Shown: positions 1 through 57,968 of the stretch, piece after piece
Layout of the letters: each line of letters starts with the position of its first letter
Position numbering within the stretch: the stretch's first letter is position 1
DNA from: Candidatus Omnitrophota bacterium
GTDB taxonomy: Bacteria; Omnitrophota; Gorgyraeia; Zapsychrales; JANLHA01
NCBI GenBank assembly: GCA_038222225.1
Contig: JBBRHV010000006.1
Coordinates: 1,626-65,625, forward strand
Reading direction: 5' to 3'
DNA length: 64,000 nt
Translations under genes and position numbers: made by a program
The notes under the pieces: model-generated
Told to the model about the DNA's origin: nothing
Database searches by the model: none
What the model saw: only the letters and a program-made list of their open reading frames with translations

Positions 1-2
1 AG

Positions 3-3000
3 TCTGATCAAAGGCCCAATTCTTCAGAGCCACTAGAAAACAATAAAGCGGTTGTTTCCAAGCTTCTGGCCGGGGTTGTGGTTCTGGTGAGCTTGGTATG
101 GCCGCTTGTTTTGTCCAAGGCCTTTGTATCAAAATATCTGGCGTTCACGCTTTGGGGCACATTGGGAGAAGGATATGTTTGGCAGCTCCTCACGTACAGT
201 TTTCTCCATACGAATCCTTTGCATTTGACCTTCAATGTGATCGCGTTTGTTTTCTTCGCGAATTTCATAGAGAGGGCAGTGGGGGTCAAAAGATTTTTGA
301 CTCTCTTTATCGGAGCAAGTGTTGCCGGAGCAGTCTTCCAGGTGCTGGCAATGGCCGCAAACAGTTTCACCTCGCCGGAATTAGCGGAGGCACTGGATAT
401 CACTCCTCTCATCGGACTCTCAGCAGTAGTAGCCGGGCTGATCGGAGCCTTCGGCGTTGTGCTGCGTGATCAGAAAGTGACATTCTTACTGTTGTTCATT
501 ATTCCGTTCCGCATCAAGGCGCAGCGGTTGGCGCAGATGTTGGTCACCGTCAGCATTGCGGCGATCATTTTCAATATAGTTCGCGGGGCCCAGGGCGGGA
601 TCGCCCACGGGGCGCACCTCGGCGGGCTTATTTTTGGTTGGGTTTATACGGAATATTTGCGGCGTGCAGGAAAGATCGATACGTTCATTATTGAAGAGGA
701 GAAACCCAAGGATCCTTCCGGAACCAACGCGGCGGTATTATCCAACTCAGATCCGGAAGGGGGAGTTGTTTCTTATCCGGCCCGTTCCAGCATCAGCGCT
801 GAAGAAAGGGAAGCAGCAAAACAGGGTACGGGCCCGGAAAATCTCAAGGGCTATGTCGTCAATTCACGGAAGATTCTGGGCGTTCCGGTTGAAGGTCTTG
901 AGATCAGTTATTCGGACCGCAGCGGACAAACAGTTGCTGAATATAAGCCGGGCCGTGTTGCCATTGATCTTTTGGGCCTTGGAGCCCGGGCGCCGCCGAT
1001 CGATCTCGAGCATTCTGCAAAATCCCGTCGCTTCCAGAGCATTATTCATGATGTTGTACGACAAATTATATTAGCTTCTCATTATTATGCCCTTTCAGAG
1101 AAAGATGTCCGTCAGGTTTCAGCCCGGCACTTTATCGGCCGGCAGCAAAAAGTTCAGAATTTTCTGGATCAGGAATTTAATCTTCGCGAATTCGGTCTGG
1201 TGTTTGATCCTGCCTATCTTGAGCTTTTAAGAAATTACCAGAGAATTGATCCTCAAATCGAAAGAATTAAAGAGCAGCTTGATCTCTTCAAGGGCGGGGC
1301 TGTGTCGTTTGAAGAGCTGTGTGAAGCTCTGGATGCGCGCGTTATTCTGAATGTGGCATCGCGTGCCTTATTTGAAGTGGGGAACAGTCCGTACCTGGTT
1401 AAAATTTACCGCGGCGGAACGCTGACGGCGAAGGCGTATGCCGCCGAAAAACAATTTTATAGAGAATATAACCCAACGGTCCAGCCGGAGCTGGTTTATT
1501 GTGATGACAATCTGCAGGCCTTGGTTGTGACGGATTTGAACCAGCTGGGATTGGTGCGCATGTTTGATTTTATTCAAGGGCCGTTCATTACGGAAGAATT
1601 GTTGGGTTGTTCGATTTCTTCCATGGCCCATGCCTTGGCGCAGCTGCATAGCAGCGCTGACGTGGCCTCGCAAACCGGTGAGCGGAAATTTGCTGAACTC
1701 AGGCATGAAGTGGACCGGGCGGTGGAGGTCTTAAGAGCGGCCGGGTTCCAAGGCCTTCCCGATGGAAAGAGCCTGGAGGATTTTCTTGCGCGATTCCAAG
1801 ATTCAGTAGTCGGAGAAAATGAACGATTGGTTCACGGCGATTATCTGATGTGGAATATTTTTGTTGACCCGGCAAGCGGAGAGGTGCGGGCCCTCATTGA
1901 CGGTGAGATGAGCGGTCTTGATTCTGCCGCTAAAGAGATGGCGAACACGATCCTGGGATTGATCGATGCCCGCAAGAATCATCCGTTCTTAATCAGTCAA
2001 ACTGCGGAGATGTTACGGTCGTTTTGGAGAGAATATATCCGGGAGACGAAAGACATTACCGGGCAGGAGATTTCTCCGGCGTTTGAGACTCGGGTCCATT
2101 TTTATTGCGCGGTCCAGTTGCTGATTGGCGCCAGAGTTGCGCATGAGAAATGGGCTAAATGGGCCCATTTCAGAATTGAGATGGCCAGGTTTTTCCTTAA
2201 TCAGGAAGCATTTTCATTGGAAGCTTTCATTGAGTTTTTGAATCATAATATTGGCAAACAACCGATCGGTTGGGTCGGGAATTTTGATGTTGCGACTCAG
2301 CACGGGCAGAGGCCGGGCTCGGGCGTTGAGATAATGATTGATGAAACAGGTTGGGCTGATTTCTTTGCCGAGGTTTGGGTTCCAGGAAACATCGGGGATC
2401 CGATTTTTGCATTGGGTATCGGAGCGGAATTACGTGTGACAAACAGAGACACCGGCGTTGTTTCGATTTGGAGGCCAGTGGAATTTTGTCATTTTGCGGG
2501 GAATAATTATCAATTTAGAGGAAGCGTGTTTTATCTCCAGGCGGGATCGTATGATGTGGAACCATCCTTCTCAGCGGATATGGGAGAAACGTGGTTTATT
2601 CCGCAACTCCCTTATGGCCCGTGTCATCTGACAGTGACAAAAGCATTGTCTGGGGAAGCGCCTTCAGAAAAGATAGTGAGTGTGGTCTTTTCTGACCTTC
2701 ACGGTGAGTTGAATGGTTTCCGTTCAGCGCTTGTAAAGCTCGGTATGATTTTACCGCAAAATAACCCGATGGAAGATATTTGGATTTCTCAAGATGTGAC
2801 GGTGGTTGTGGATGGAGATATCATGGATCGTGGTTTGCGACAGAAAGAGTTATACCACTATATCTGCCATCTCATGTTGACCGCCGAAGAAAGCCGTAAT
2901 CGGGTCATCTTTATCTTAGGAAATCATGAGCTGCTTCATCTTCAGGGGACTCCGGATGATTGGACAGCTCATGCGCTTACAGAAGTGATTAGAGAAGGTA

Positions 3001-6000
3001 TTCTTCGAGGAGATATTGTGGCAGCCGCGTATCTAGGTGGGCGTCTGATAGTTCATGCGGGAATTTTACCTTTTATTACCATGGATTTGATAAAGACATT
3101 ACGCCCAGGATTTTTGACTGTCGTTGCCCATCGGTCAGGAAAGTTCGTAAAGGATCTTACCGCGGTTGAAGTTGCCATCGAATTGAATAAAACACATAGC
3201 GTTCTTTCTGCTGACTCTATCGTGAATGAATTCAATCGGAGATTGCGGTTGGCGGTTGAGAAAGGCGATTATTCTGACGTTATTTTCCAGAGAGGGAACG
3301 CTCATTTTGGCGAGAACAAAAGGCCTGGAGAGTCGGGATATATACCCGGAGGCATATTCTGGGCAGACTATGAAAACGAATTGCGGCTGGTTGACCCGCG
3401 TGCGCTTATAGCGCAGATCGGAGGACATAGGGAGGGGAATGCGCTCCGTTGGACAAAGGGAGCCAGGGCTGTGAACGTCAATCTTTGTTATAAAGAGGGA
3501 TTTGGACGCAGCTCCGGAGTCGCTGTGTTTGATGGACAAAACTGGAAAGCTGTTTATTTTGATGGCCGGCCCATGCAAATTATTCCTGCTGTTATGGAGC
3601 GTGCTGTAAAACGACAGACAACAAATTCGGCAGCAGGTCAAGGCGGAACCAACGCGGCTGTTCTTGAGGGTGCGCCTTTTGAAGAACCGGAAACGGGTCG
3701 GATGAGCAGGCGAAGCATGCTGAAAATGCTGGCGCTGGCAGGAGCAAGCTTGCCGTTCATGACAACGACTGCTTTTGCTGATGAACCGACGGTTGATGAA
3801 GTTTTGACGGAACTTTTGAGCACTCAAACAGCGCATGGCCTCATTAAGAGTTTCAAGGGCACAACCGATACCTTCATGCAGAATCAGGCCGTGACCTATG
3901 ATCAGGCAGCCGCCGGGATCGCAGCTCTTGCGGCCGGAAGGACGGCGGAAGCGGTCAGGATTTTTAATTTCTTTTATAACCAGCATAATGGAGGAGATCC
4001 TGTCTGGAACGGGTTTGTGAATATGTATGATGCGACCCGCGGGGTCAAGGGCAACGAGCGCACGATCCACACAGGCCCGAACATCTGGATGGCGATGTTC
4101 AGCCTTCATCTTTATATGGCAAGCAGCGGTCAACAGGCCACGAAGGCCTTGACCCTTGCCAAAGCGCTCATGCAGTGGGCCAGGGGTTTGAATCATCGCG
4201 ATGGAGCGGTTGCCCTTGGACCGGTCCCCAATAATAATATTTTCTCAACAGAACATAACCTTGATTATTTCGCCTTCCTTAAAGGAATACAGTCGTTTTT
4301 GTCCGCGGCAGAAGCGGCGATCGTTCAAGCAGAAATGGACGGGGTTGGAACATGGTTAAAGACACATGCTTATGACCCGGCCAGAAGATTGTTCAAACGC
4401 GGAGCATATGAAAACCCGGTTGTCTATGCTACAGATACGTCAAGCTTTGCATTTTTATTGGGATCGCAGGTTCTGGAAGATTGGGGCATTGTTCGCTCAA
4501 CATTCATCGGCCAGTCCGATGCTGCCTATCGTGTCGGGACACGCGGTTTTGATGTGGCGAGTGTCGAGAACGCCAATTGGACCCCGCGTTCACGTTATGT
4601 CTTCAGAGAGTTTACTCTTCAGATGGCGGTAGGATTTTTGGTGATGGCTGATGATGAACACGATCGAGGCAATTTCACGCTGGAAAAAACGTATCGTGAT
4701 AAGGCTCAGCTCTATGCTTCTCAATCTGGCATAGATGGTGATTATCAATATTGTGAACAGACCGGGGTTCAGCTCTTTTATGATATTCCGAGCTGGAAAA
4801 CAATTAATGGTCAGTCGGCTTCGGTCATGGCCTGGAAGATATTTGCACTTCTCGGTTTCAACCCGTTTGGATTTGTTACAAAGGTGCGGCTGTCCGTCAG
4901 GCGTCTGGCGGCAACTGGAAATATGGAGTTGACTTTGCGCAAGGAAAGTATGGCGTCGCTCACTGCCGAGATTCTTTATTCAGATGACCTGGGAGATCAG
5001 AAAGAATGGAAGAGCGCCGGTTCAGTGGATTTGAGCGGCCTAAGGGCGGTTTGGGTCGATAACGGTTCTCAGACCACAACACATCCGTCGCAAAGCTCAA
5101 GGAGATTCTACCGAGTCTCGGCTGTAAATTCGTCTGTCCAGGGATTGGGCGCAGTCCATCAGGAGTCTAACGGTTTAGTGCCAGAGACGGTATTAATTGG
5201 GTCAAGCGCAGAGTATGGTCAAGAGTTCAAAGATGCGAATGCAGCAGTTTTGCAGGGGAAATTTGTTCAGACAGTGAAGACCAAAGGATCTGGGCTTAAT
5301 CGCTTTGACCTCGGGCGTTGGGGACGCGGGGCACTGCATTCAGTTCTTGCGCTAACACTGCTCACATCCGGTTGTGAGAAAAAAGAGGATACCCAGGGAG
5401 ATGCGTTGTCGGGAGTCGCGGTTCAGCCTGTTGATAGGAGCGCATTGGAGAACAGGATCAAGGAAGAGGTCCGGAAACTAGAGTATTCTGACAAGAACGC
5501 GGAGGATTTTGTAACGATGCTACGTCAATGGAAGAATGCTCAAGGCCAACCGGTTCTTACTGCGTGGGAGCAGAGCATTCTTAATGCCCGGAAACAATAT
5601 GAGCAGGGAGCCATGACAGCCGATCAGTTGGCCGGGATCGAAGCCGGGGTTGTTGGAGAAGTTGCGATGAGGATCGCTGAAGAATTTTCCGCGAATAATA
5701 ATGCTTTTGAATTGACCGATCTGATTGAAAAGAAACAGTCACAGTGTGTCAGCAGGTCAATGGCGGTAGCTATCGTCGGGAATGTACTTGGATTTAAGGT
5801 TGACTTTCTTGATGTTGATGCCAAGGAGATCAGGGCGATTGACGTTCCATTGGCGGAAAGAACTGTGGCGCATGCGGCCACCCTTGTACATTTGACCGGC
5901 GGGACCGTGATCATCGCCGATTCAGCGCTACGGTTTGTAAGCCGGCCGTTTTTAATGGAAGAAACCTACGCCGCAGTCGGGAACTATTGGGAACTTAAGA

Positions 6001-9000
6001 ACAGGAACGAACCGTTGTTGCTGCATGGACGAATCAGGAAGGCGTCTCTTTTAGCAGAGATTTATAACAATCGAGGCAACGCCTATGGAAGAGCCGGTCG
6101 TTATGAGGAAGCCTTCGCGCTGATGGCGAAAGCGATGGAAATCGATCCGGCATTGGCTGCAGCTTATTACAATCGGGGAGTTCAATATCAGGATCTAGGC
6201 CGGGTAGCCGAGGCAGTGGCGGACTATACAAAAGCGATCGAGCTTGATCCAAGAGATGCTGCTCCATATTGCAATCGGGGGAATATTTACAATACCGCAG
6301 GACGGGATGCTGAGGCTGTTGCTGATTATACGAAGGCCATTGAGCTTGATCCGCAATTAGCAGTGGTGTATTTCAATCGGGGAAATATTTATGGCAGATC
6401 AGATCGGCCAGAGGAGGCGATTGCGGATTTGACGAAAGTGATCGGGCTGAATCCGGAAGATGCCCAGGCTTATTACAGGCGGGCAGTGATTTACGGAAGA
6501 GTCGGTCAGTTAGAGAGCGCCAAAGCAGATCTCTTAAAGGTGCTGAATTTAAGTTCGGATGAAAAGCAAAAAGAACAGATCAAAGCTGCTGTTCGCAAGA
6601 TTGATGACATGCTTAAAGAAATGCCTAAGAAGAGCGCATCATCCAGCCACTCTGTTAAAAACGCTGAAACCAACGCAGCGATCCTTTATCCGTCACGCTT
6701 GGTGCCTGGACAAACGCCGGACTGGGCAATAAAATTCAGAACGACGTTGCCTAGCGATTTTGTTGAGGCGGCCGAGTCAGAGGATGGAGAGCAGGGCGTT
6801 GACAAGGTCATGTCGCTGGGGATTTGCCAGGATTCGCCGGACGTCTCGGAGCTTTTATCAAGATTTTATCGAGGATTGATGGAGAATAGCAACCCATCCG
6901 AGGTCCGCAGTCATTTGATTTATGACACGTGGTTAAAACTTAAAGAGAAGAAGATGGATGAATGGAACGCGACATTGGCGGTGTGGTTTACGTATGTGGT
7001 CTTTCAAAAAGCTTTAAGCATAGAAGCAAAACGATTAGCACAAAAGAATGCTCCGGCGCCTTCTGTTGAGGCATCCACAGAAGTCGCTACAGAACCATCT
7101 TCAAAAGGGCAGGAAGAAGGGGCGTCTGCCCGGGAAGATGAGCGTTACTTGGGGATTGTGATCGAGGTGGAAGGGTTTGGCCAGGTCACACTGACCGAAC
7201 GCATCGCCCGAAACAGCCGGACGCTTCTTTTTAAGACGAATCACCCTGGGCTTTTGATCAAACTTTTTGATCTGAACCACACCAGCATCGCCGGAGCCTT
7301 TGATCCGGTGATCGTCCAGAATTTTGAATTGGAACGCAATAATTTTGTCGAGGTCGCGAAGATCGATGAGCTGAGGCCGTATATTCCGCATTATTATCAG
7401 AGCGGCATCATCAAAGAGAGCAAGTACGCTTTCATCGCCATGGAATACATTGAAGGCACGGACTTAAAGAGCTGGCGGGAACAGGTTATTAACGGACGCA
7501 GTGAAAAGACTTTGACCGCCATTGAGTTCTGGCAGATGATGTCCCAGGCGATGAGCATTTTAAGAATATTCCACAAGTATGACCTGATCTTTTCTGATTA
7601 TAAACTTGAGAATATTCTAAGGCTGGCAGACGGACGTCTGAGGTTCGTTGATCTGGGAAGTGTTTTCCTTATTCATGGCTCGATCAAACCGCAGGATTTT
7701 CCGTATTCAGCAACAATGGAGGATTCGGAAGTTTTTGAAAACGCTGTCACTTTGAAGAACGGAAAGCCGCTGGCGAAAATTTCCGATATCTTCTGTGTGG
7801 GTGTGAGCCTGTTTGAATTCGCCACAGGCCAGGACCGTTTGACGCTGAGTCGTGAATATGCGGATATGCTTTTGACTCATTTACGCGTTATCAACCCGCG
7901 GATGTCTGAAACCCGGCTGTATTTTAATTATTATCCTCATCTTAAGGGAAAATTACCGACGCTGGAAGATCAGCTGCGTGAAGGATACGTCTTTTTTGCT
8001 GATTTTTGGCATTTGCTGCACGAAGTTCTTAAATATACCCAAGACGGTTATGAAGACATGGGACAGGCTGAAAAGGATGTTGTCCTGTTGTCGGCGGGGA
8101 TCGATTTTATCCGTAAGCAGCTTGGGCCTCTGGGCTGGGTGGCAGAGCCTGTTGCCCGGGCGACAGTTCTTAGACGCGTCCGGGTTGACAGTATTCATGA
8201 TCTGCTTTTGACGTTCCACAGCCCCTTGGGAGCGGAGGTCGTTGATGACCTTCGCCGTCACAACTGTTTTGTTGGTTGTGCTGAATCACAGTTCGGACAG
8301 CAGGGTTTCGTGGAACAGATGAGCACTTGGGACGTGCGTCTGAATTCGCACACTCAGCATTGGGCGGTCCAGGCGCCGGTCGCATTCAGGCATGATACAC
8401 AAGAAGCCGGTGCGTTGTTCTTGCAGCAGACCTACACGGATGAGGATGGCCATCGGTATTATCACATCACAAGCATGGAGGAGGCGGATGAATTGCCGAA
8501 CGGGGAAAAATTGACCCTGGCGCATTTGGAGGATGATCCGTACGCTTGGCTGGGAGCTCCATCGCAGGAAGATAATCAGGGTGGAAACTCTAAGAAAAAG
8601 CCTGTTCCAGCTCCTGAGAAAGAAAAGATAGTCATTGCGGGTAACGAAAGTGAGAAGCAGAAGAAAAAAACCAAAAGAAAATCCAGGAGGCAAAAGCTTC
8701 CAAAACCGACGACACGAGAGGAGGCCATCGCGTTGCTGATCCAAGCGGCCGGACGTGTTCCTTCGAACATTGCAAAAACCCCGCATCTTGTGGCCGACTT
8801 TTCACGCGGAGAGTTGACCGCAGCCAAGATCAAGAGCATGGCAAGGCAATGGGGGATTACGGGATATGATGTGCCGATCTCGAATTTGCCTTTTAGAGCG
8901 TATTCACGGAATGCTTCTTCAGACGAGCAAACAAATTCCTCTGTTCTGAACGAAGATATTTCAAAAACCGGACCTCCGCAGGGCTTTATTCATGTGGATG

Positions 9001-12000
9001 TCCATCCGGAAATTTGTTCGTTTAACGCCCTTGCTGAAGTTCAGCATCAATTTGGGGAGCTCACCACCATTGTTGTTGTTTATAGACGAGCCGCCGCTCT
9101 TCTTCAAAGGAAGCCGGTTTATGCCTCGCGTGAAAATGATATCATCATTCATTCCGACGGGATTATTTCTCAGGATCAGCTTATTTCGAAAATAAAAGGC
9201 CCTATCGCGCGCCTGTTGGTAACCGGCAATGAATTTGAAAGCTGTGTTGCCCGGGCTGTTTTTTCCATCAGAGAATTTATGCGGGATCAATATTCTGCCG
9301 GGTTTGTCTTGGATGTTCATTTTCCGATGGATTTGATCGTTGCCAATCGTCATGACTATCGCGATGGGGGATATCAAAAGATGATCGCGAATATAAAAGG
9401 CGGGGACTTTTTCTACAGCTATAAATTTCAAGCCCGTCGGATTGCCTATGACATCTATGATGGAACCGAACTGATCTGCCCTTGTGGGGAGGGAAGCGAA
9501 AATATTTCCAATCTTTATGTATGGCCATCTTTACAGAGCATGAAAGATGAATTAAGCCGAGGAACCGGCGGGACCAACGGGGCTGTTCTTGAATCAGGAG
9601 AGGGCGGCGCCTACAAGGAATTGATTTGTCGGTTTGACATGAAAGAAGATTATGAGGCGGATGATTGGAAGGAATCACGGGTTCTTAAGCGCGTGGCACT
9701 TATGAAACAGATCAGGTTGGGTTGGAAATATCCTCAGATGGGAGAACCGTCGGAACAATGGCTCAATGAGCTGAGAGAACTCGTTCTTCATCGTCTTTGG
9801 ACAAAGCTTCAAAAAGCACATCGTGGAGACATGTTTTTCCCTCAAGACATGGTTTCTCTCAATCGGTCGCTGAATCAGCCGTTTGTTTTTATCGTCGATG
9901 AACTTTTAAAGAACGCCCTTGATGCCCAGGCCTTGGCAGGGCAAAGCGGAAATGTCCATCTTGCGAGATCGTTGCAAGGCGGAACATTCGTGATGGCGGT
10001 TTCTGATAACGGAATCGGCGTCCGTCGCCCATTCTTAGGCTCAGAGCAGCTGGCTTGTATTGAGTCTTTGGCAGATCAGCAGAAGAGACGTAATACTCGT
10101 TTGGAAGCAAGTGATGGGGCTGGATTGATCTGGGTTCAGTATCTGGTCGCCATGCGGGGAGGTAAGCTTGAAGTCGAATCTCCCGGTCGCAATGAAGCCA
10201 GGACTACGGTTGTTGTGTCCTTGCCGGCGGATGCGTTAACGGTCATTGACAAGACGGGCTTAGGTTCTCAGACAAATGCTGCAGTCCTTCAAAAGAGAGA
10301 AGATGTCGCTACGCGGTTTATTTTTAGGTTAGCTGATCATTATGGTCTTTCTTCCACTTGTGATCCGCAGGAGATCCTTCAGGTTCTTCGTGCCAGGGGA
10401 ATCTTGAGTTCAGGGGAAGAAAGGGCGTTTGTCAGATATAGAAAAATTTTAAAACAGATGTATCCGGAGCTGAGCCTTGGGCAGGCTGAAGCACGCTGGA
10501 CGGAGGGCTACACATTTTTCGGGAATAATTCTTCTGAGGATTGGGAGCTTTCCGGACTGACGGAAGATTTTACGGTCATGGTTAAGAAACACATCGAAGG
10601 GATCCGGGCCGTTGAACACACCGATCATCCTGCGGATCAGGGCTGGTGGAAGGAAGATGGGCTGAAAATAAGAGTGATCCGGATTACGGATAGTCTTGAT
10701 TTAAAGGCGGCGTTACCGAACGAAAAAACAGAAAACCTGCCGCTGTCATCTGATGATGAAAACGGTTCACTGCACCTCTTTGAGTTTTTGTTCAAGAAGA
10801 TCTTTATTGAGCCAAAATATTTTGGCCTGGTAGCTTTCAAAGAAGGAAGGCCTGTTGGTGTATATGGGGTTTTTGTTTTAAATGATTGGAGAACGATCTC
10901 TGGGCGCGGATTATATGTCGTTCCATGGGAAAGGTATAAGAAAACAAATATCGGGTGGATGCTGGTCTCAAGGATGGCGGAATTGTTCGCGCTCAATGGC
11001 TATAAGTATCTTTATATCCCTGTGGCCAACCGTCCGTCGGCGCAGAAATTTTTTGAGAACGTGTCGGACAATACTGGACGCTTCCAGTTTTTCACAGAAA
11101 CAAAACGGAACGATGACGGAAAAATTCAAAAGGTTGCTGTGAAGCTGCAGGAAAGGTTCACTCCGGTTCAATGGGACATTGATCTTAAGCGTCAGATCGG
11201 CCAAGTCAACAGCGCGGTATTAAATACGAGCCTGTTGCAGCAGGTCCAAAATATGGAGGCAATGTTTAAAGCCTATGAATCGATTCTTAGTGACCATGGC
11301 CGACAGATACACGAGAGAGTTCGAGTGGTTTTAAGAGCAGCTTCTCAAGGCGTGATGAATGCAGAGCAGCAAAAAGAAGTTCGGGCGCTCGTGGCGTTGA
11401 TGCCTGATCCGCAGCATATTGATATTGAATCCGGCGGAGAAAAGAATTGGATCCGTTGGTTTGATTTAAGCCCGGAAAGACTGGGCGCATCTTTAGATCA
11501 AAGCATTGCCGATGGATGTGCGTGGCCGTGCCTGCATTGTGCGGCGTACAATGGCCATGCCAAAACAGTGATGGAGCCGCTTCCTGTTGTGATCGCAAAA
11601 ATTTTAAGCAGAACACAAACGGATATTATTTATCCATTCCAGTTCGATCTGATTTCTTGGCGGGATCTTTTCTTTGGAGTCGGCATTTCGGGATTAGCAG
11701 AGTTTATATCACGGTATAACCCGCAATATCAATTACGGTCATTGCCGACACGAGGTTGGGATAGCGATGATGCCTTTGTTCAGAACGAAGCCCTGCATCT
11801 TGCGCAGCTTAAAATCGCTAGTGGTATGTTCATTCTTTCATTCCATCTGTGCCATCAGCGGTATGACATCTTGCCGGCTATTGCGCAGGCGGTCAGGAAC
11901 GGAGACCGTGCAGAACTCGATGCACTGATCGATGTTTATGCAGCACGTTATGCGAATGTGATCGCTACGTTAAGTCCTGCGCTTGATCGGGTCAGCGTAT

Positions 12001-45000: not shown

Positions 45001-48000
45001 AGACGACGGATCAGCCGGTCATTGAACGGATCCAGAACCGTTGGGAAGTTGGGGAATTGGAAAACATGCCGGACATTTACGAGCGCGTACCTGACCGTCT
45101 TCAGGCCCTTGCGCTGGCCCACCGCTATGTTCGTCAATATGGGCTTAAGTCGATCCTCTTTCTTGAAGGAGTCGGTCGAAGAAAAAGTAGAGAGAGAAAC
45201 GAGATCGGCGGAGTGGGCGTGGGACTTTATAACAGCCGGTATACCATCAATCGATTAGGGGGAAAGATTGATCTTGATGATACGCGCTCGGGCCGGACCA
45301 CGTTCGCGATCGGATTTTTTGTCCGGGAATTTTCATTGAGGCAAAAAGGATCGGATGCGTTTGTTAGCGGTGCTAACTCTGCGGTTTTTAGGGGATCGAA
45401 GGATTCTTCTCTTGATTCTCTGCTTGAGAGCATCATGGCGTCCCACAAAGAGAGCGGGGTGCGATCAACGCCTTGGGCTGCAAGGATGGACAAGCCGCTT
45501 GACCGCACAGGATTCAACGGGCCGCACCTTTTCGCGAATATTGAATTAACGAACGAGCAGGTTCGGTTGTTCCTTATCCTTAAAGAGCATAAACAGGCGC
45601 TCCTCAATTTACTTGGTGAAAGCTTCAGAGCTGTATTTGGGAAAGCGGCAGGGATCCTTCTTAATCAAAATGTTTCTGGATTTAAGGCAACACAGGTCGA
45701 TGAACAGTATTTAACTTGTACCGTTGGTGATCTTTTTATTCCAGCCATCGAAAATGCTTTTGATGCCTATATGAAAAAGAGCGGCCAATCATCCGATGTT
45801 CCGTTGGTTCTTGAATTTTATATTTCCTTTGATGGCCGGGTGATGATTGCGGAGATGCGCACCAATGGTCTGTCGTATGATTCCGGTGAGACCGCGACCT
45901 CCGAAAAGAAAAAGGACTCGGATCAATTGGGTGGAAAAGGGCGCGGACTGAAAGCCATTGATGAATTTGCTGCATGCATCGGCGGGATCCAGTGGGATAT
46001 CCGAAACCGTAAAGATCTTTTTCCTGAGGATGCGGAAGGATCTGTTTTTTATGTATCTCTTCAACGGGATAAGCTTTCTCAAATCGTCAGTCATGCGGCG
46101 AAGTTTTTTGGTCTGGGTTCGTGCGCGACATGCCCAGAGGATAGCGTCAGAAGAAATGCCGACGCAACGAGCAAGAATAGTGGAGCGAATTCTGCAGTCT
46201 TGAACGGAAACACGGATGATTCGACGGGAAGTGATTCTCAAAAGAAGCGCTTGGAAGATTTCTTGAGCATGGCTAAAAATTCACAGTTGGAGGCGTTTTG
46301 GTTAATTCATGAATTAAAATTGGATCAAATTGAGCGGGCCGTTTCCGTTGGCAGCGGCGTGCTTGCGTTGGCGCCGTTTGAAATGATTTTAATCGAAAGC
46401 GGTGTTGTGGTTACGATTTTTGATCCCGATCCAAACGTTCAGGAAAATTGGGCGCAGTATAAAGCGCGAAGGCTTAATGGCCATTGTGTTGACCTTGTAC
46501 CGTTATCCAGATCAAAATTTGGAAGTTCAGCACAGCCGATCCAGGGTGCGCAGATGTATATTACGATGAATGTTTTTGGTCGTTCGGGCATTCCTATGAC
46601 AGAACGTGCACAAATGTTAGGCCTCTTAGCGAAAAGTTTTAAAAACGGGGACTTTCTTTTGAATGGATGGTGCAGTCCGCTGGCGTTTGAATTGATTGCA
46701 AATTCGCCGGCACCCCAAGAGGATGTCAGGGTCGAGACCGCGCTCAATCACGAGCATATGCTGGCCTTGGTGAATCTTTTGGAATCGCGGCATATGATGT
46801 TGGAGCCTGTCCGTTTCGGCAGGAAGGAGGACGTTCTTCATCAGAGGGACTTTTATCGAATTATTCCGCTCGGATCACCGGTGATGCCGGTAGCTGATAA
46901 AAATCGAAAAAAGAAGGGTGAGCGCCAGCCTGGAAAGAGGATGTCCGAAGATAAAGGCGCCAATGCTGCTGTTTCGCAAAATAATGAAGGCGTTCCGGCG
47001 GATGATCGAGGGATCGATTGGAAAGGATTAAGGGCAGGGCTTGAGCAGGGAAGTTCCTTGTCGTTCGGCAAGGTCAAGCAGCTGATCCGGGCAGGGAACA
47101 AGAAGGTGTTTGGTCTGCTGCAATCTGTCGTCGCCGGCCACAGCAAACAAGAGGCTGCGGTTTGGCATTTTATTTTGACGGTGGATCTTGATCGGGAATA
47201 TTCAGCCCATTTGGGTTCGAACATGAGAAATTTGAAAATGGCTGTTATCCGGGCCGCGCAAAAGGATCTTGAAAAAGGCGGTGTGCCCGGGTCCGATCTT
47301 CTGGAGCAGTCTGTGTCCTATGGTGATGAAGATTCTTTGAGCGCTCTTCAAAGGGTGGCCTTCGGTGTCAGCAAAGGGAAATTCCTTGCGATCAGAGTAA
47401 TCTTTGAGGCGCAAAAGGAAAAGAGTCCGGCGTCTCCGCAAATACGGGCTGTTTGCCGGGGATTTTTGAACACGATCGCCTATAAATTAGGCGAAGGGAT
47501 CGAGAGGGATCCAGAAACGGGGTTACTCATACTTGGAGCGCTTGTTTTTGAGATGCCTTGTGAACCGATAGGGGAAGGGGCCCGCGGGATATTAAAAAAT
47601 ATCGTCGATGGGAAGTGCCGGTTGACTAAAGAGAAAAGGATTGAGGCGTTGAATTCTTTGGTGGAATGCGTTCGTGACGGAGGCTCTGTCGATTTGCTGG
47701 AGTGGATTTTGAAGGGCGTGGCCGCGCTTGACGGCAAAGGCTTCCCGCGTCTCAATAGCTGGAGCGTTCAAGAGATGCTGGGTTCGCTTTTCCACAATGT
47801 TTCGGTGGCGCCAGTATTGCGCTTGTATGCTTATGGACTGATGCCATTGCCGGAAAACGAGACCGAAGCGCTTGTATTAGCTAAACGTGTGTTACATGAA
47901 AAGGCCCATTTGACCTCCTTGGAACTATTTTCAGACAGCGGTGTTTGGCACAATGAAGAGCTTAAGGTTTATATCTTGGCCGTGTATTTGATTATGGTTG

Positions 48001-51000
48001 CGAAAATAAAAAGAAGCAGTTCCTTTTTTTCACGATGCCAGAATCAGGAAGATGACATCGACAGCATTATGACCGGCACGATGCTGAAAGAAGATTACGG
48101 CGGGATTGGTAACAGCAAGCTGCAGTTCGGGCGCAAAGATCTTATCGAGGACCGCAATGAACCGAAGATGATGTTCGGTACCTGCGCCCACGAGTGGACG
48201 CATATTTTTAACCGTTGGATTATTGAAATTTATAGGATCGAAGAAGAGGATGGACAGGATGCGATCGATGAATTTTTGGCGGATCTGGGTGCGGAAATGT
48301 TTTTTGGAGAAATGGGCTGGCAGCAGGCAAAAGAGGTGCGCCGGAATAAATTTGTATTTCAGCACGCGAAAGTATTTGGGCGGAGTCCCCGGGCAGATCA
48401 GATCAGCCATGAGCAGCATGAGGCGGCCCGTGTCGCCTATAAGGAGATGCAGCGGTTTTTGGAAGCCAGGGAAAGGGAGACCGGTGAACGCGTTCCTCTT
48501 TCTGGAGAGATGCTGTTTTATCTTTGGGGTGCTTTGGGAGAGAGGAAAGCAGAGGAGATATCGTTTGTCATGTTGCAGGATTTGCTGCAGGTCCGGTATG
48601 GTTATGCGGAGTTTGTTCATCGGCGGAAAAACAAGTTCCAGTCCCGTCCCCTCGCGGATAGCGAGATGGAAGAAAAAGGAGTAACGCAACGTGAACCTGA
48701 TAAGGACATTGTTTATGTGATCAGATGTTGGCATGTAGAGGAAGAGGAGCGCGCCGAGCTGTTTGAAGGACCAAATGTTTTACGAATTGCTGTTTCATCC
48801 GGCACAGAACCGCAGGCCAGCGGATCCCAGGATATTCAGGTCATACAAGAGGCAACAAACCCGAAGGATGGAGAAGCGCCATCTTCTAACGCCAACTCTG
48901 CGGTTTTAAACTATTGCGTCGCGTGTTTTGCCGGCGTTGTCGCGTCTCCCTGGGTCGCATTGCCGGTTGACGTTGTCGCAAGCATTGCCATGATGTGGGG
49001 AATCATTGTTATGTCTGAGGGGATCGAGATGCGGCACTCTTTAATTTTTAGGGCTCTCACCTGGATCAAAGACCGTTATGAATCACGCAAGGTCACGATC
49101 GAATTTTTGAAAATGGTCTTGAGGTTTGCAAACATGGTTGGTTTGTATGCGCTTTTATCTTTTTCGTGGGGAACGCTCATTTTGCAATGGATCTCGTTAT
49201 TAAGCATAAAGCTGGATTGGCCTGAGTGGATGACTTTTATAGCAGCGCTCCTACCGGCAGCAGCCTTCATCAGCGGAGTAAGTATGGTGGTGGTCCCGGA
49301 GATCATCCGGGTGCATAAGGAATGGAAGAGATATCTTAAGAATATCCGGGGAGATCGTGCTCCGGAATGGATGGCCCAAAAATACAGCCATATCTCCGCG
49401 GAAGAATTGCTCCACCGTTCGGTGAGGATGAAGCGTATTGGGCGGGTCTTGTTAGCTGCTGTTTGGGGAATAGGTATCATTCTTTTGGCGATGTCGTTCC
49501 AGCATGCTCCGCACATGAAAGTTCTTAAAGGCATAAGCATTGTTGTTCTGTTTTTTTATTATCAGACATTGGTTGCAGCCCGGGAAATGAAGAAAATGGC
49601 AGAAGAATTGGAGCAGACAAAAATTCTAAGGGAGGCTTCTTTAAAAGCCAACCGATCCAGGGCAGGGCCGCCGGTCAGTTCTTATTCGGATTTTAAAGGT
49701 GGTATCAATTCAGCAGTATTGAGTGAACAGAGCGAACCGGATCATACGTCTCCCAATAAAGCAATTTTTGATTTTGTTCGACAGAGTCTCGGGGATGGAA
49801 CAACCCAAACAGTGAATGAGGTGGCGGAAGCGCAAAGACCCGTGATTCTGCAGGGTGGCAGAGATCAGGCGCTTAGAGCAGGTAATGATTCTTTGCCTGA
49901 TGATTTAAGAAAAGTCAATGCCGGTTATCAAGCGGACATTTATTTCTCGCCGAGTCGACGGATGTTTTATAAGGTCAGGAAATCCACGCTGTCTGCCTAC
50001 TATAGGTCATTACGGAATCATCTTCTTGATCGCGGGCTGTTCAGAACATCGGCGTATCTGTGGATTATGGACACGCTGCGGAAAAATTATCAAAGGTCCG
50101 CTGGAATGAAGACCGTGGAGGGTCAGCCTTTTTACGATATTCTTTCGCAGGCCGGTAAGGCCGGACGGCCGAACACCGGTGTTCTTGTCCGCATAACGAA
50201 GATGCTTAAGGCCTTCAGAGCGGTTGTTAGTTTTTGTATTGTTATGGCTGGCAGTATGTTTATTTTTTCAAAGACGGTCAGGGCTGAGAAGGCGCTTTTC
50301 CATGACAATTATTTCAAGGGTTATGAGGACATGCTTAAGTTTGGGTTTGTGCAGCAAGGATATGTGGCAGATTTTCGAGTGATCAGTGTCCCTGCGGAGG
50401 ATCGGAATGGAATTTTTAAATGGAGATGGTTGGAGCGGAACCGAAAGGTCATTGAACAGTCGGAAGTGGTTGAACTGATACAGGTGTTGCGGGAAATGAC
50501 GGATGCGCAGTTTTATGTAGCGGTCGAGCGTTACATTGAGATCCAGCATGCGTTTTGGCGCTGGGGATTTTTTAATCATGCTTTGGGATTTTTGGGAAAT
50601 TATGGATATGTCAAAGATAATGGTCAGACCAACGGACCACTGGTCCTTTTTGACCCGGGAGAGATCGTTAGTAATGGTGATAACGCCGAAGATAAAATTT
50701 TGGAGGTAGTCGAGCGCAAGAAGGAAGGGGCGTATAAGGACCTCAACGCATTGAATCCAGTTTGGGGGCAGTATTACAAGGTTAGAGTTGAGGCTGAACT
50801 AAACCGCTCCAAATTTTACGAGCTTTGGTGCAGTGAAGCCGGGTGCCGGATAGAGACAATCCAAAATTATTCCACTAACGCCGCGGTCGGTTCCAAATCC
50901 CGTTTCGTTAGCCGAAAAAGGGAAAGAGAAGATCGTCCCGCGATGGCCTTGCCGAGTTGGGAAGAGTTCAAGGACCCTCGACGGTCATGGCTGGTAAAAT

Positions 51001-54000
51001 TATATATTCTTTTGGTGCGTCAGCCGGTAAGAGAAGAATATAAACTTTTAGCCGAAATATGGAGTGTTGCGGGCTGGCTTGGGGAGCATGGCGTCAATGA
51101 GAGCAATATGCATGAGCGGTGGGTTCAGGAGCTTTTGGAGCTGCGTACGACGATTAATGCTTTTACCCGGTATCCGGTCCGGTGGTTCGGCCTCTTTGGT
51201 GCAGTACTGATGTACTGGCCTGCGGTGTTCATACATTTTGTTTATAATGCCCGATGGTTGGTGCGCAGGGTTATCCGGGAGGTTTTGTCAGGGGTGAAGG
51301 GTTCGACAGCAACTGTTTTTGTCGGCGAAGCTGCCATGGTCAGAGAAAAGAAAACATCCTCGGCATATCAAGTCATTGTTGAAGAGCTTTGGAATTTGAG
51401 GAGTTTTTATCCTGGGAAGATCTATCTGCGATCAAAGACTATCCTTTGGCTGATGGTGTTCGCTGCCCGATGGATTCTCCGGAAACAGTTATCCACCAGC
51501 TCGGTCGTGGTGCTCGAAAAGAGCAATAACCAGGGTGAAATAGGAAGTGGGCATTTACGGGTTTTCCGGGCATTTGTTTTTAGTTTTGGTTTGAAGTTGG
51601 AATTATTCAGGGCAGATGAGTTTTTGCTGATATCGACAGAAGAGCAGTTTCCAGCCCAATTCGACAAGTTGAAAAATTTATATGCGATGATGAAGCCTTC
51701 CCAGGCTTTTCCCTTAATGGGGGGATGGGCGGCCTCACCGGATCTCGCTATGATCATAGTTTCTTATATCATGAAATATCGTCCAAAAGTTGTTCTTGAT
51801 TTGGGCAGCGGAACTTCGACAATCATCATTGCTCAGGCTTTGAAAAATTTATCCTGCAGCCAGTCCCGCCGCACTTCTGCGGAACGGGCAGGATTCCGCC
51901 TAACGGGTGAAAAGATTTTGGGGGCTCCACAGACAGGGCATGTGTGGTCCATGGAGCAGGACGCAGCCTATGCAGGAAAGACGCGGCAAAATTTGGATGC
52001 CCATGGGCTTGGTACTTACGCGACGGTTATTCATGCTCCGATCAGAGAATATTCGAATCACAACGGCACGGGAAGATGGTATGACGTTTCCCGGCTAGAG
52101 GGTATCGGCCCGATTGATTTGGTGATTGTTGATGGGCCGCGTGGCTCAGGTCAAAGAGCTGGGGCCATGCCGATTCTTTTTGATCATTTAAGCGATGAGG
52201 TTGCGGTGATCATTGACGACACGAGCCGGGTGGCAGAACAGGAAATGGTTGAGAAATGGCTGAGAGATTTTGAAGGGTTCCGCGCGCAGGAAATTGACAC
52301 GGAAAAGGGGACGATTATTTTAAGAAAAACAAAAGCCGCCATGGATGGCGAAGAGGCAGAGCCTATTTCCTTAGAGTCTGAAATCAATGCCGCGGTGCTT
52401 GGAAATGAATCTTCGCCTAAAGAGGATGGGACAAATCACCAGGAAAAATGGTTTTTCCGAGATGCAAAATCCGGTGCGGTCGAAGTCCATGAAATTGCCG
52501 ATGATAATGGGGAAACAATTTGGCAAGTTCTCCAGGAACAGGAAGCGAGAGAGCAACCGGTTTCTGACAATAGCGGGAATAAGATCCAGGGAGCGACAAG
52601 CGCTGCGGTGCTGGGCAGTGGAAAAGTTGGCCGCAATGATCCTTGTCCCTGCGGCAGCGGGAAAAAATACAAGAAGTGTTGTGGGGGGGCTTCCGCTACT
52701 CAACCTTTCGCAGCGCCGGCATTGAACACAAGAAAGAGCGTCGGACGATCGTTCAGGTTTATTGCCATGGCTGATGGTCAGGTTCAAGATCTTTCTCCGC
52801 CGGCAGCGTGGGAATCAGGTTCCGTGGCCGTTTCTCCCCAGCCTGTCCATGGGCGCGCTGCTTTAACCGGGACGGTCATTCCGGCCAGACTTGAGCATGC
52901 TGAGCGCATACTCGCGCTATCCAAGAGGGTCTCCTCATCTACCCCTGTTTCGATGAATGTGATCATCAGATCCATACAGTCCATAGCTGAAGATTTCAAT
53001 GGTGAGCCGAGAATTTTTGTTTACATAGAGAAGAACGTGGTCTTAGGGTATACGTTCGCTTCCATTTATCCTTCAAGGAAACTGGTTTATATGGTTCAAA
53101 CATCCGTTGATCAACAGCATGAAGGCCGCGGGATCGGACGTTATCTGCATCAGTATTTGTTTGATGTTGTGCGAAGCCAGGGACACAAAAAAATCTTTTC
53201 AATATCGAATCCTCGTGCGGCGAGCATCCTTTGTAAGGATGGTTTTCAGGTTTTGACAGACGCCCGAAAACTTCCAGTGATCAGCATTGATCTGCGCGAT
53301 GATGAAAATGTCGTATCTTTGAATGCGACGTTGGAGGATGTTCTCTGCGTGGGGATTATGCGGGTTCTTCTGCCGACCAATCTGGTTGCCATTGATCAGG
53401 CGTTAATTCATGGGGATATGCCCGGGGTTCAGCATCTTGTCCGGACGAATTTTATTTTTGCCTGGCTGCGAGCCAGCGGCATTCTTCCTTCGGATGAATT
53501 CCGACGGAAGATCATTGCGGATTTTAACAGACGAGGGGCTGGTAGGGCTATGCAGCAGAATGAAGAGACGCTGGTTGTGGCCTGTGCGGTAGGGACTTCA
53601 CAACATCCGTCCTCGAGAGATGAAAAATTATGGCAAAGGGAGGGACGTACATTGCCGGCGTCTTTTGATCCGTTAGAAGATTTTGCGCAGCATTGTGTGG
53701 ATGTTGTTTTCCACCCCAAAGAATATGAACAGAGGTATCATTCGGCTGATGAAAAAGATCGACCTCGTTTATTGGCGCAGTATGCAGTTGTGAGGGATGT
53801 TCTTCAGCAGTCCCTTCCTGGCGCAAGAGATAGAGGACAGTCTTCTGGCGGAAGGGGACAGTCCCCCCGCGGGGACAATCCCCAATCGACCAACGCCGCG
53901 GTGCAGGTTTCTGATTCCATTCCGACGCCTTTGACTTCTGAATTTATTCGAACGTTGTCCGTTGGAAAGAGAAGTGTAACGTCATCCGAAAAACGCATCC

Positions 54001-56891: not shown

Positions 56892-56956
56892 CTGGCCGGG
56901 ATTTCTATAAAATGGTTTTGGTAAAAATAAAAAATTATATGAATTTTAGATTTTAT

Positions 56957-57009
56957 GTATAATAAGTGAACTTGCGGTTGTTTTATTAGGGATATTGAAG
57001 ACGAAGGAG
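56957..57009 (+). promoter_or_regulatory. Possible promoter -10 element and Shine-Dalgarno for the aldolase gene
   Basis: AT-rich 126-nt intergenic region. TATAAT at 56957-56962. AAGGAG at 57004-57009, 8 nt before ATG 57018. No convincing -35 found. Confidence 0.4.
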
Positions 57010-57017
57010 AGGAAAAA

Positions 57018-57968
57018 ATGTATAGACCGGAAATTCGGGTGTTTGACTGCACGATCCGCGATGGCGGGTTGATGAACAACCATTTATTTGATCACAGTTT
57101 TGTCAGAGATGTTTATAAAGGATTATCCGAGGCTGGGGTTGACTATATTGAGCTCGGATATAAAAATTCCAAAGATCTTTTTTCGCCGGAGGAATACGGC
57201 GCCTGGAAATTCTGTGAGGATGACGAAATCCGAAAAGTGACCGAAGGCATTGAATCCAATGCCAAGATCTCGGTGATGGTGGATATCGGCCGGGTGAATA
57301 TGGAAGATATAAAACCGGCTTCTGAGAGTCCCGTGCACATGGTCCGCGTGGCCAGTTATGTGAAGGATATTGATAAGGGGATCTCGATGGCCAATGAATT
57401 CCATGATAAGGGTTATGAAACCACCATTAATATCATGGCTATTTCCAAAGATCAGGGGCCGGACCTCGAAGCCGCTCTTTATCAGATCGAAAAGGAAAGC
57501 AAGGCGGATGTGGTGTATATTGTGGATAGTTTTGGGTATTTTTATCAGGAAAATATTGAGCATTTGACCAAGTTGTATAAGAGGATTTTAAAGACACGCG
57601 AGATTGGTTTTCATGGTCATAATAATCAGCAGTTGGCCTTCGGCAACACGATTGAAGCGATTATCCATGGGGCGAATTTTCTGGATGCAACAATTTTCGG
57701 GATCGGCCGGGCTGCCGGGAATTGTCCGATCGAGCTTTTGCTCGGGTTCTTAAAGAATCCGAAATTTGATATCCGTCCGGTTCTTGATCTGATCTCCCGG
57801 GATTTTGTCCCGTTGCGTGAAAAGATCGAATGGGGATATGTCATTCCTTACGCGATCGCCGGTATGCTCAATGAGCATCCTCGCGCTGCTTTGGCTTTGC
57901 GAAAGACGGAGAAGAAAGAGAATTACCGTGATTTTTATGAGAGTTTGACTAATACGGGGTTGGATTAA
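57018..57968 (+). CDS. HMGL-like (DRE-TIM) aldolase / pyruvate carboxyltransferase-domain protein
   Basis: 'VFDCTIRDGG' N-terminal motif and 'FHGHNNQQLAFGNTIEAI' (HxH metal site) typical of the HMGL/4-hydroxy-2-oxovalerate aldolase/isopropylmalate-synthase superfamily. Strong SD. 316 aa. Confidence 0.8.
   Translation: MYRPEIRVFDCTIRDGGLMNNHLFDHSFVRDVYKGLSEAGVDYIELGYKNSKDLFSPEEYGAWKFCEDDEIRKVTEGIESNAKISVMVDIGRVNMEDIKPASESPVHMVRVASYVKDIDKGISMANEFHDKGYETTINIMAISKDQGPDLEAALYQIEKESKADVVYIVDSFGYFYQENIEHLTKLYKRILKTREIGFHGHNNQQLAFGNTIEAIIHGANFLDATIFGIGRAAGNCPIELLLGFLKNPKFDIRPVLDLISRDFVPLREKIEWGYVIPYAIAGMLNEHPRAALALRKTEKKENYRDFYESLTNTGLD

Follow-up and report, generated by a model that had tools for sequence, protein, structure and literature searches.

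We analyzed a 64,000-nucleotide (nt) stretch of Omnitrophota DNA (GenBank contig JBBRHV010000006.1; hereafter the window) that is largely occupied by a single giant open reading frame (ORF). Read at the sequence level, the giant gene is a head-to-tail chain of ~54 complete proteins of ordinary size that are unrelated to one another and include enzymes, regulators and polytopic membrane proteins. Where separate genes would have a stop codon, a spacer and a new start codon, neighbors in this chain are joined by a short flexible linker with a recurrent heptapeptide. We give about an even chance to the explanation that the gene encodes a chromosomal polyprotein, which would be processed at these junction peptides by an endoprotease. 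Somewhat less probable, and a little short of even, is the broader proposal that the multi-enzyme class of Omnitrophota giant proteins in general consists of chromosomal polyproteins, each with a lineage-specific cleavage peptide and a co-evolving dedicated protease.

A recurrent peptide at the module junctions

The consensus heptapeptide, [G/E/Q]-[T/A/V]-N-[S/A]-[A/S]-V-L, recurs 49–53 times in the giant ORF (Table 1). An iterated position-specific scoring matrix (PSSM) returned 49 sites, and four degenerate copies brought the count to 53; 51 positions scored 7 or more and merely 20 scored from 0 to 7, leaving a near-empty gap. The shorter pattern N[AGS][AS][VI][LVIF] was seen 44 times where 0.86 were expected. 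It occurred at most 4 times in any of 200 shuffles and 0–2 times in the five other frames, and no motif match turned up in the 14,565 amino acids (aa) encoded by ordinary neighboring ORFs of the window and of three relatives. Information at the seven positions (−2 to +4) was 1.4, 2.0, 4.5, 2.5, 2.8, 3.3 and 2.6 bits. Asparagine was the most conserved residue (46/49 sites), the position after it invariably held one of the small residues S, A and G, and the residue after V-L was mostly N, G, D or S. In the flanks, S, G, D, K and N were over-represented and hydrophobic residues under-represented, and the sequence upstream of the motif was not conserved.

At the nucleotide level, information across the 49 sites was confined to codon positions 1–2, with ~0–0.2 bits at third positions. 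Codon choice at motif positions tracked ORF-wide usage, serine being encoded by AGY and TCN alike, and junction copies with the same pentapeptide shared only 70–75% DNA identity. We concluded that selection acts on the peptide and not on the nucleic acid, because the information lies at codon positions 1–2 and codon usage is that of the background; this rules out that the motif acts at the DNA or RNA level.

Other readings of the motif were also rejected. An N-glycosylation sequon was ruled out because NSA and NAA do not match N-x-S/T. Hidden separate genes with internal initiation were dismissed, as a Shine-Dalgarno (SD) sequence plus start codon followed the motif at 5 of 49 sites versus 7.1±2.6 at random, and methionine was not enriched. 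Internal transcription units found no support: promoter- and terminator-like counts were near the shuffle expectation and at most 2 standard deviations above it (for example, 33 terminator-like sites in 20001–40000 versus 22.0±5.4 in shuffled sequence). The window search gave no Rfam match, and Pfam no Hint/intein domain match in the giant ORF, where the junction motif sits in low-complexity linkers.

Two perfect junction peptides stand 19 aa apart at 31242–31313 (GTNAAVLENGTADHEQDGGETNAAVL), representing either a duplicated junction or the leftover of a deleted module.

Module content and borders

The ~54 modules between junction peptides have a median length of 324 aa. Pfam and NCBIfam matched ~17–19 distinct families in the giant ORF, none of which dominated by copy number: Rhomboid, APH, Metallophos, TPR, Pkinase, HATPase_c (3 copies), GNAT (~5–6, the highest copy number), Rce1/CPBP, Methyltransf_28, Methyltransf_24, HPr, PALP, the N and C domains of alanine dehydrogenase (AlaDH), HTH_3/31, LacI and SEC-C. 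Two CxxxCxxC modules resembling radical S-adenosylmethionine (SAM) enzymes and one HExxH module were recognized at the motif level only. An initial annotation, made from the letters of the window without database searches, had counted more than 25 families in this frame. That figure was an overcount, and what stands is the set of profile matches plus these motif-level modules. Between 43 and 47 Kyte-Doolittle hydrophobic segments resembling transmembrane (TM) helices were found in ~10–20 modules spread along the chain, although hydropathy counts of this kind are unreliable.

Several families were sought without success. The visible ORF had no SecA_DEAD, glycoside hydrolase (GH), NUDIX, C39, S8 or dockerin match, its lone glycosyltransferase (GT) signal being a weak AglJ-like match. 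There were no polyketide synthase (PKS) or nonribosomal peptide synthetase (NRPS) domains in the giant ORF, and Pfam detected neither RTX repeats nor Peptidase_C80, the cysteine protease domain (CPD), in its 18,962 aa.

Junction sites fell between domains. None of the 23 domain envelopes was hit by a junction site, whereas 8.3 would be hit on average under the null (P = 0.0005). For the 13 free-standing homologues of M09 found by phmmer (380–446 aa), the start falls no more than ~10 residues from where the motif sits, and the end 5–25 residues past the aligned core. In an AlphaFold2 (AF2) model of M09, both flanking motifs fall at the margins of the confidently modeled core, with predicted local distance difference test (pLDDT) values of 50–70. 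A profile search of genome contigs with the M09/M41 alignment returned no related loci. The lack of any split domain, the M09 termini, the AlaDH module and two enzymes or factors from relatives described below (an NAD-glutamate dehydrogenase and a sigma-70 factor) indicate that the units between junctions are complete, independently folding proteins.

Three modules are candidate proteases that would act on the junctions in cis. The rhomboid module M01 has a complete catalytic signature, as read from its translation, with the HxxxxHxxxN, GLSAVVAGL (Ser) and AHLGG (His) motifs all present; its best NCBIfam match is rhombosortase, far below the cut-off (34.5 vs 84). The best NCBIfam match of M10 is to the MrtJ/MrtS sorting proteases, also far below the cut-off (33 vs 75). 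The third candidate, M45, had no match in Pfam, NCBIfam or the PDB.

An internal paralogy shows the same gene segment with and without a junction. Modules M21 and M22 together are 46–52% identical to M54, and the mid-gene copy is split by a junction (KLSGGVNAAVLVPD, GGVNAAVLVP), whereas M54 and its orthologues in relatives are continuous at that point (KLS-MAEAD or KLA-ITAAD). This comparison shows that junctions can be gained or lost alone, by an indel of ~6 aa.

The giant gene does not encode a fibrous or repeat protein. Its sole sizeable tandem repeat lies inside M39 (41109–41470), where an in-frame tandem duplication (180 nt, 2.0 copies, 91% identical) doubles a 60-aa coiled-coil-like segment (QQVADNVRRMEFEERKKELLASWRMM...).

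Close relatives

The comparison set was small, comprising three close relatives and roughly seven distant fragments. The giant genes at their syntenic loci were called at 13,533 aa in GCA_035452745.1 (contig DAOTBU010000001.1), at 6,501 aa in the JGI contig Ga0116155_10000325 and at 8,756 aa in GCA_029561995.1 (contig JAKQWM010000177.1); the latter two end at contig ends. From the giant of DAOTBU010000001.1 (L006) we compared 3,626 C-terminal aa, and from that of JAKQWM010000177.1 (L007) 2,389 aa, with each other and with the window. M54 (57–60% identity) was the only window module common to these C-terminal stretches. Both were nevertheless punctuated by the window's motif (tNASVL, mNSAVL, iNSAVL, tNAAVL, tNAAVI, tNAAAL), which was also present in a further relative sequence, L004.

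The shared blocks of L006 and L007 are 64–85% identical, and two whole-module indels separate them, with borders exactly on motif copies. At the first, L006 reads GM-NSAVL-[1,339 aa]-HI-NSAVL-RKHEG and L007 has the single junction MM-NSAVL-REQEK; the 1,339-aa block is a complete NAD-glutamate dehydrogenase. At the second, L007 reads GT-NAAVI-[582 aa]-QT-NAAVL-ASSLE and L006 has the single junction GT-NAAAL-ASAND. The L007 copies around the 582-aa block (residues 1513 and 2095) share an identical 15 nt, ACCAACGCCGCGGTG, consistent with junction repeats having recombined or slipped so that the block was deleted or inserted. Because both indels are bounded by motif copies, we concluded that modules are gained and lost as in-frame cassettes of one module plus one junction.

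Distant fragments

The motif N[SA]AVL was absent from the longer distant fragments with an M09-like module. Several of these carried other recurrent peptides, spaced 50–800 aa apart: [AS]SSP[VIAL] in P0020 (14 vs 0.47 expected), dRTSP[MV] in P0013 (8 vs 0.07), RRRSPSG in P0010 (4 vs 0.00), aaPAGr in P0003 and P0008 (4–5 vs ~0.01) and SSP[AV] in P0001 (4 vs 0.29). The peptide lay 15–40 residues upstream of the M09-type core in P0020, P0001, P0010, P0003, P0008 and P0009; P0013 and P0007 have an N-terminal extension domain, and the nearest peptide copy was ~130–145 residues upstream of the core. On the other side, the peptide in P0013 and P0009 followed the family's C-terminal 'S[ST]LDELDP' tail, where free-standing members end, by 2–5 residues. 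In P0020 (>4,200 aa), each Pfam domain fell within one inter-motif interval (HD, methyltransferase, M28 peptidase, sigma-70 and HATPase_c), and one such module (residues 3652–3866) is a sigma-70 factor, complete from region 2 through region 4. P0013 holds a trypsin-like peptidase.

Extent and coding character of the giant ORF

The giant gene was confirmed as one real, uninterrupted Omnitrophota gene of at least 18,962 codons. Counted from nt 3, the first stop in frame 3 of the plus strand is the TAG of 56889–56891, after 18,962 sense codons (56,886 nt). The initial annotation's description of this frame was reproduced exactly, as was its statement that other ORFs in the span reach at most 353 codons; its remark that the gene exceeds the visible part was borne out by the open left edge. 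The longest overlapping ORF, of 353 aa (3135–4196, minus strand), begins with ATG antisense to M02 and is probably a chance antisense frame. The two other plus-strand frames contain 34–72 stops per 3 kb (11–24 per kb); with ~48% GC and such stop-rich frames, a stop-free run of this length is not due to chance. The order GC1>GC3>GC2 held in 12/12 3-kb bins, and relative synonymous codon usage (RSCU) correlated with that of six flanking genes (r = 0.66; off-frame control, r = 0.34). Because the flanking genes end in TAA or TGA, the code is standard, with no recoding. Independent support came from a Logan assembly of run SRR19962012, in which a 4.6-kb contig was 100% identical to window positions 54530–57100 and so took in the final 2.36 kb of the ORF.

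The first 51 nt of the window had no match in genome or metagenome contig collections. The source contig measures 67,212 bp, and the 3.2 kb of it outside the window is probably on the right side, since MutL and MutS go on rightward of MnmA in the relatives. We infer that the end of the contig truncates the giant ORF.

Host and gene neighborhood

The product of the flanking MnmA gene (61465–62559, minus strand) is 100% identical to an NCBI protein encoded on the presumed source contig and 81–84% identical to MnmA of three metagenome-assembled genome lineages, one of them named 'Candidatus Omnitrophota bacterium' (HSA30193.1, 81%); named matches at 50–55% identity were mostly Omnitrophica/Omnitrophota. 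The gene order MutS-MutL-...-MnmA-radical SAM-aldolase-HMGL-giant gene is common to the window and the loci of three relatives. MnmA identity and synteny thus support an Omnitrophota host, and the giant ORF does lie next to mnmA and mutL, which the initial annotation had named as flanking genes.

Between the KDPG-aldolase-like and radical-SAM genes, positions 58806–60353 encode a 515-aa polytopic membrane protein, judged by eye from its translation alone to be glycosyltransferase-39-like; this gene was absent from the otherwise syntenic loci of the relatives examined (L002/L003, L007, L008 and L011). The 126-nt spacer 3' of the giant gene's TAG (56892–57017) is very AT-rich. It contains a strong SD (GAAGGAGAGG) upstream of the HMGL-like gene and two promoter-like matches, both on the minus strand, and showed no convincing intrinsic terminator after the giant ORF.

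Table 1. Positions of the giant ORF, its annotated modules and the junction peptides in the window.
Feature	Position (nt)	Strand	Remarks
Giant ORF	3–56891	+	18,962 codons + TAG; left window edge still open
M01, rhomboid intramembrane serine protease	3–725	+	Pfam Rhomboid 2.8e-22; N-terminus beyond window
M02, APH-type phosphotransferase + calcineurin-like phosphoesterase	726–3650	+	975 aa, no internal junction
M04, TPR repeat module	5238–6671	+	
M05, protein-kinase-like module	6672–8933	+	
M07, HATPase_c module	9576–10274	+	
M09, divergent radical-SAM enzyme	11208–12377	+	CxxxCxxC; free-standing homologues 380–446 aa
M10, CPBP/Rce1-like intramembrane protease	12378–13637	+	EExxxR, FxxxH, HxxxN all present
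M11, SAM-dependent methyltransferase (Methyltransf_28)	13638–15386	+	
M21+M22, internal paralogue of M54	22911–23846	+	split by junction motif; M54 without that junction
M25, GNAT acetyltransferase	27081–27683	+	more GNATs in M08, M15, M50
M27, polytopic membrane module	28776–30413	+	~9 hydrophobic segments, HPr domain at end
M32, pyridoxal-phosphate (PLP)-dependent enzyme (PALP)	32955–34109	+	
M33, complete alanine dehydrogenase/PNT	34110–35492	+	N and C domains
M36, helix-turn-helix (HTH) DNA-binding module	37272–38807	+	XRE + LacI type
M41, paralogue of M09	43386–44597	+	CxxxCxxC
M42, HATPase_c module	44598–45374	+	
M45, HEWTH...DEFLAD module	46962–48893	+	candidate zinc protease (motif level only)
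M48, Methyltransf_24 module	50877–52385	+	
M50, SEC-C zinc motif + GNAT	52599–53891	+	SEC-C motif 19 aa
M54, C-terminal module	56070–56888	+	terminal hydrophobic helix
Junction GTNAAVL	726–740	+	
Junction GTNAAVL	3651–3665	+	
Junction DANAAVL	5238–5252	+	
Junction ETNAAIL	6672–6686	+	
Junction QTNSSVL	8934–8948	+	
Junction GTNGAVL	9576–9590	+	
Junction QTNAAVL	10275–10289	+	
Junction QVNSAVL	11208–11222	+	
Junction QVNSAVL	12378–12392	+	
Junction GVNSAVL	13638–13652	+	
Junction GTNSSVI	15387–15401	+	
Junction GTNGSVL	15852–15866	+	
Junction DINSAVL	16746–16760	+	
Junction EVNSAVL	18174–18188	+	
Junction ETNASIS	18792–18806	+	
Junction EANSAIL	19374–19388	+	
Junction STSASVL	21006–21020	+	
Junction ATNASVI	22158–22172	+	
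Junction ETNASIL	22353–22367	+	
Junction TTNAAVL	22911–22925	+	
Junction GVNAAVL	23250–23264	+	missing at matching position of paralogue M54
Junction ESNASVL	23847–23861	+	
Degenerate junction MTNASVN	26880–26894	+	
Junction GANSSVL	27081–27095	+	
Junction HANSAVL	27684–27698	+	
Junction GSNSAVL	28776–28790	+	
Junction QVNSSVL	30414–30428	+	
Junction GTNAAVL	31242–31256	+	doublet copy 1
Junction ETNAAVL	31299–31313	+	doublet copy 2
Junction GVNSAVL	32349–32363	+	
Junction QTNAAVL	32955–32969	+	
Junction EANAAVL	34110–34124	+	
Junction GTNSAVV	35493–35507	+	
Junction TSNSSVL	36771–36785	+	
Junction EINSAVL	37272–37286	+	
Junction AVNSSVL	38808–38822	+	
Junction GVNSSIF	39201–39215	+	lowest PSSM score of sites
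Junction GANASVL	40209–40223	+	
Degenerate junction ETNSAIA	42240–42254	+	
Junction SVNSAVL	43386–43400	+	
Junction GGNSAIL	44598–44612	+	
Junction GANSAVF	45375–45389	+	
Junction GANSAVL	46188–46202	+	
Junction GANAAVS	46962–46976	+	
Junction NANSAVL	48894–48908	+	
Junction GINSAVL	49707–49721	+	
Degenerate junction STNAAVG	50877–50891	+	
Junction EINAAVL	52386–52400	+	
Junction ATSAAVL	52599–52613	+	
Degenerate junction STNAAVQ	53892–53906	+	
Junction DTSSAVL	54573–54587	+	
Junction AANSAVL	55059–55073	+	
Junction ATNAAVL	56070–56084	+	TNAAAL / TNAAVL at orthologous position in relatives

Discussion

We propose that translation of the giant gene would yield one chain of dozens of modules, which a lineage-specific endoprotease would recognize at the junction peptide and cut into individual proteins. 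Several results favor this polyprotein explanation. The seven-residue footprint of the motif can be read as an endoprotease recognition site, a span of −2 to +4 being typical of protease subsites. Module borders coincide with protein termini, and signals for separate expression (SD plus start, promoters, terminators, Rfam elements) are lacking; both fit a polyprotein. Release of the modules also fits better than tethering, because HTH, HPr and NAD-, PLP-, SAM- and acetyl-CoA-dependent modules, together with the sigma factor of P0020, stand among membrane modules. Lastly, the differing peptides of the distant fragments resemble the junctions of viral polyproteins, which co-evolve with their proteases.

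The protease could be supplied in cis (M01, M10 or M45), by the unseen N-terminal part of the gene, or from elsewhere in the genome. Rhomboids recognize a small residue at P1 and a hydrophobic one at P2', so that a cut at [A/S]|V-L would suit M01; we regard this as a lead. If the chain were instead cut behind V-L, ahead of N, G, D or S, the site would resemble the preference of the MARTX CPD, although no C80 domain is present. The recurring in-frame junction would also let cassettes of one module plus one junction come and go, and such gain and loss would account for the poor conservation of giant genes between relatives.

Several points weigh against the polyprotein explanation. Cleavage at the junctions is hypothetical, as is a link of the motif to any of the candidate proteases, of which M01 and M10 score far below the NCBIfam cut-offs of known sorting proteases. 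The motifs flanking M09 are not clearly disordered in the AF2 model. No junction separates the two enzymes of M02 (APH and phosphoesterase) or the membrane and HPr parts of M27, and M54 lacks the junction that divides M21 from M22, suggesting that separation is not obligatory everywhere. The regular expressions for the peptides of the distant fragments were picked post hoc, with an excess as stated of 30-fold or more. Moreover, the SSPV, RTSP and RSPSG forms resemble Ser/Thr-Pro phosphorylation or O-glycosylation sites, and a modification or docking role is conceivable. The literature, too, treats such products as single membrane-anchored proteins.

The main rival, which we consider unlikely though worth serious attention, holds that the product stays uncleaved and anchored in the membrane as one megaprotein ('beads on a string'), its junctions serving as hinges or as docking motifs, for example for the TPR module M04, a chaperone or an export factor. 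The hydrophobic segments along the chain, the TPR module and SEC-C motif, and the lack of internal junctions in M02, M27 and M54 agree with it, as does the published view of single membrane-associated chains (PMC10066038; 10.64898/2026.06.07.730766), and a cell-coat role as one anchored megaprotein has been proposed for Velamenicoccus. However, flexible hinges seldom hold five consecutive residues at 2.5–4.5 bits, and module borders coincide with the termini of free-standing homologues. An uncleaved chain would also tether cytoplasmic cofactor enzymes, HTH regulators and, in P0020, a sigma factor between polytopic or single-pass membrane modules; West-Roberts et al. call some predicted localizations 'highly unlikely' (10.1101/2023.11.21.568195). 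We find it very unlikely that the motif does nothing in the protein and is merely microhomology for recombination or slippage, a scar or a 'module adaptor'. The motif-bounded indels of L006 and L007 and the identical 15 nt around the 582-aa block agree with such an adaptor, but the near-absence of third-position information, the use of both serine codon families and the 70–75% DNA identity of same-peptide copies speak against it, and the amino-acid motif is kept across species with different modules. Recombination at junctions more plausibly follows from motif conservation than accounts for it.

Slightly less probable again is separation without a dedicated protease, through Asn-lyase self-cleavage at Asn-Ser/Asn-Ala, the chemistry of nodavirus and picornavirus capsid maturation, or ribosomal 'skipping'. 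Asn-lyases cut at Asn|Ala and Asn|Ser, and the near-invariant Asn before S, A or G would suit such chemistry. Known Asn-lyases, however, require a folded catalytic context and not a linear linker motif, the SSPV, RTSP, RSPSG and AAPAGR peptides contain no Asn, and the unconserved upstream sequence is unlike that of 2A-type peptides. The least credible alternative, to which we attach hardly any weight, is that the long frame is an artefact, either an assembly chimera or a consensus masking stops and frameshifts between ordinary genes. The sequence is metagenome-derived, and the second assembly confirms the final 2.36 kb of the ORF only. Against this stand 18,962 stop-free codons where other frames have 11–24 stops per kb, uniform composition and codon usage, and independent samples and assemblies of relatives with the same locus and architecture (13,533, 8,756 and 6,501 aa). 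An in-frame peptide at 49–53 places cannot come from assembly error, and start signals are not enriched after junctions.

The junction peptide, which the initial annotation missed, is the most informative feature of the giant-ORF sequence. Its presence at 49–53 places turns the question of one chain or cut pieces into a concrete handle, and it offers a practical annotation rule: split giant genes at the motif. If the chain is cleaved, part of the proteome of these ultra-small bacteria would be made as polyprotein, and the '20,000–150,000 aa proteins' would not exist in the cell. This would be a bacterial form of gene organization and expression distinct from operons, with the cassette as the unit of gene gain and loss; to our knowledge, the polyprotein strategy has so far been found in viruses and a few toxins. 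If the chain is not cleaved, the motif would still be a new short linear motif organizing the largest known bacterial proteins. In either case, cassette indels at an in-frame motif explain the quick turnover of giant genes.

The giant ORF itself is not a novel kind of object and belongs to the multi-enzyme class of Omnitrophota, a phylum for which giant ORFs are a documented hallmark. The initial annotation had called genes of this size extremely rare in bacteria, which holds for bacteria overall but not within the phylum, where ORFs >20 kb occur in 77/116 Velamenicoccia genomes (Seymour et al. 2023, PMC10066038); its statement that ORFs of tens of kb are reported mainly from Omnitrophota matches both the literature and the host of the window. 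'Archaeovorins' reach 85,804 aa, and their cleavage has been called 'an important question', with only C39 and S8 peptidase domains pointed to and no site given (West-Roberts et al. 2023, bioRxiv 10.1101/2023.11.21.568195). A 2026 preprint (10.64898/2026.06.07.730766) lists 5,761 proteins of at least 10 kAA, among them a 'multi-enzyme' class in which domains of the HATPase_c, GNAT, methyltransferase and radical-SAM types abound. The junction peptide, its lineage-specific dialects and the cassette indels are apparently unreported. They are not mentioned in the key giant-ORF literature or in a full-text search of limited scope, and in the three main sources the terms 'motif', 'linker' and 'polyprotein' either do not occur or have no bearing on such a peptide (PMC10066038; 10.1101/2023.11.21.568195; 10.64898/2026.06.07.730766).

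The window's gene resembles other Omnitrophota giant ORFs in being a single ORF >10 kAA with many divergent Pfam families, none dominant, and few annotatable domains, and in its HATPase_c, GNAT, methyltransferase, radical-SAM and TPR content, many TM-like hydrophobic segments and poor conservation between relatives. In its visible part it differs from the archaeovorin subtype in lacking SecA DEAD/preprotein-binding, GH and NUDIX domains, with only SEC-C and the weak AglJ-like GT present; the C39 and S8 domains of archaeovorins are reported at the N-terminus, which in the window's ORF lies beyond the left edge.

Viral polyproteins (picornavirus, flavivirus, coronavirus pp1ab) likewise combine unrelated complete proteins in one ORF, alternate membrane and soluble units and have a short lineage-specific peptide at each junction. 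Unlike them, the present gene lies on a bacterial chromosome beside housekeeping genes, and has ~54 units versus ~10–16, with a putative protease and putative cleavage sites. We know of no need for polyproteins in bacteria, whose operons already permit internal initiation. MARTX and large clostridial toxins are autoprocessing, large bacterial proteins in which unstructured linkers separate unrelated effector modules and are cut at a simple site, after Leu before a small residue; the window's motif closes with V-L, and the next residue is in most cases N, G, D or S. In contrast to these toxins, the giant ORF has neither RTX repeats nor Peptidase_C80, and its modules have the look of housekeeping enzymes and regulators rather than of toxins.

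C-terminal sorting proteases recognize a short signature before a C-terminal TM helix and basic tail. Rhombosortase with GlyGly-CTERM and MrtJ/MrtS with JDVT- and Synerg-CTERM are such systems, and they provide the best, though sub-cut-off, NCBIfam matches of M01 and M10; unlike in these systems, soluble modules follow most of the window's junctions. Multifunctional enzymes and megasynthases (AROM, CAD, PKS/NRPS) share with the giant gene many catalytic units per polypeptide. Their units, however, serve one pathway, their linkers are unconserved in sequence, and their products are left unprocessed.

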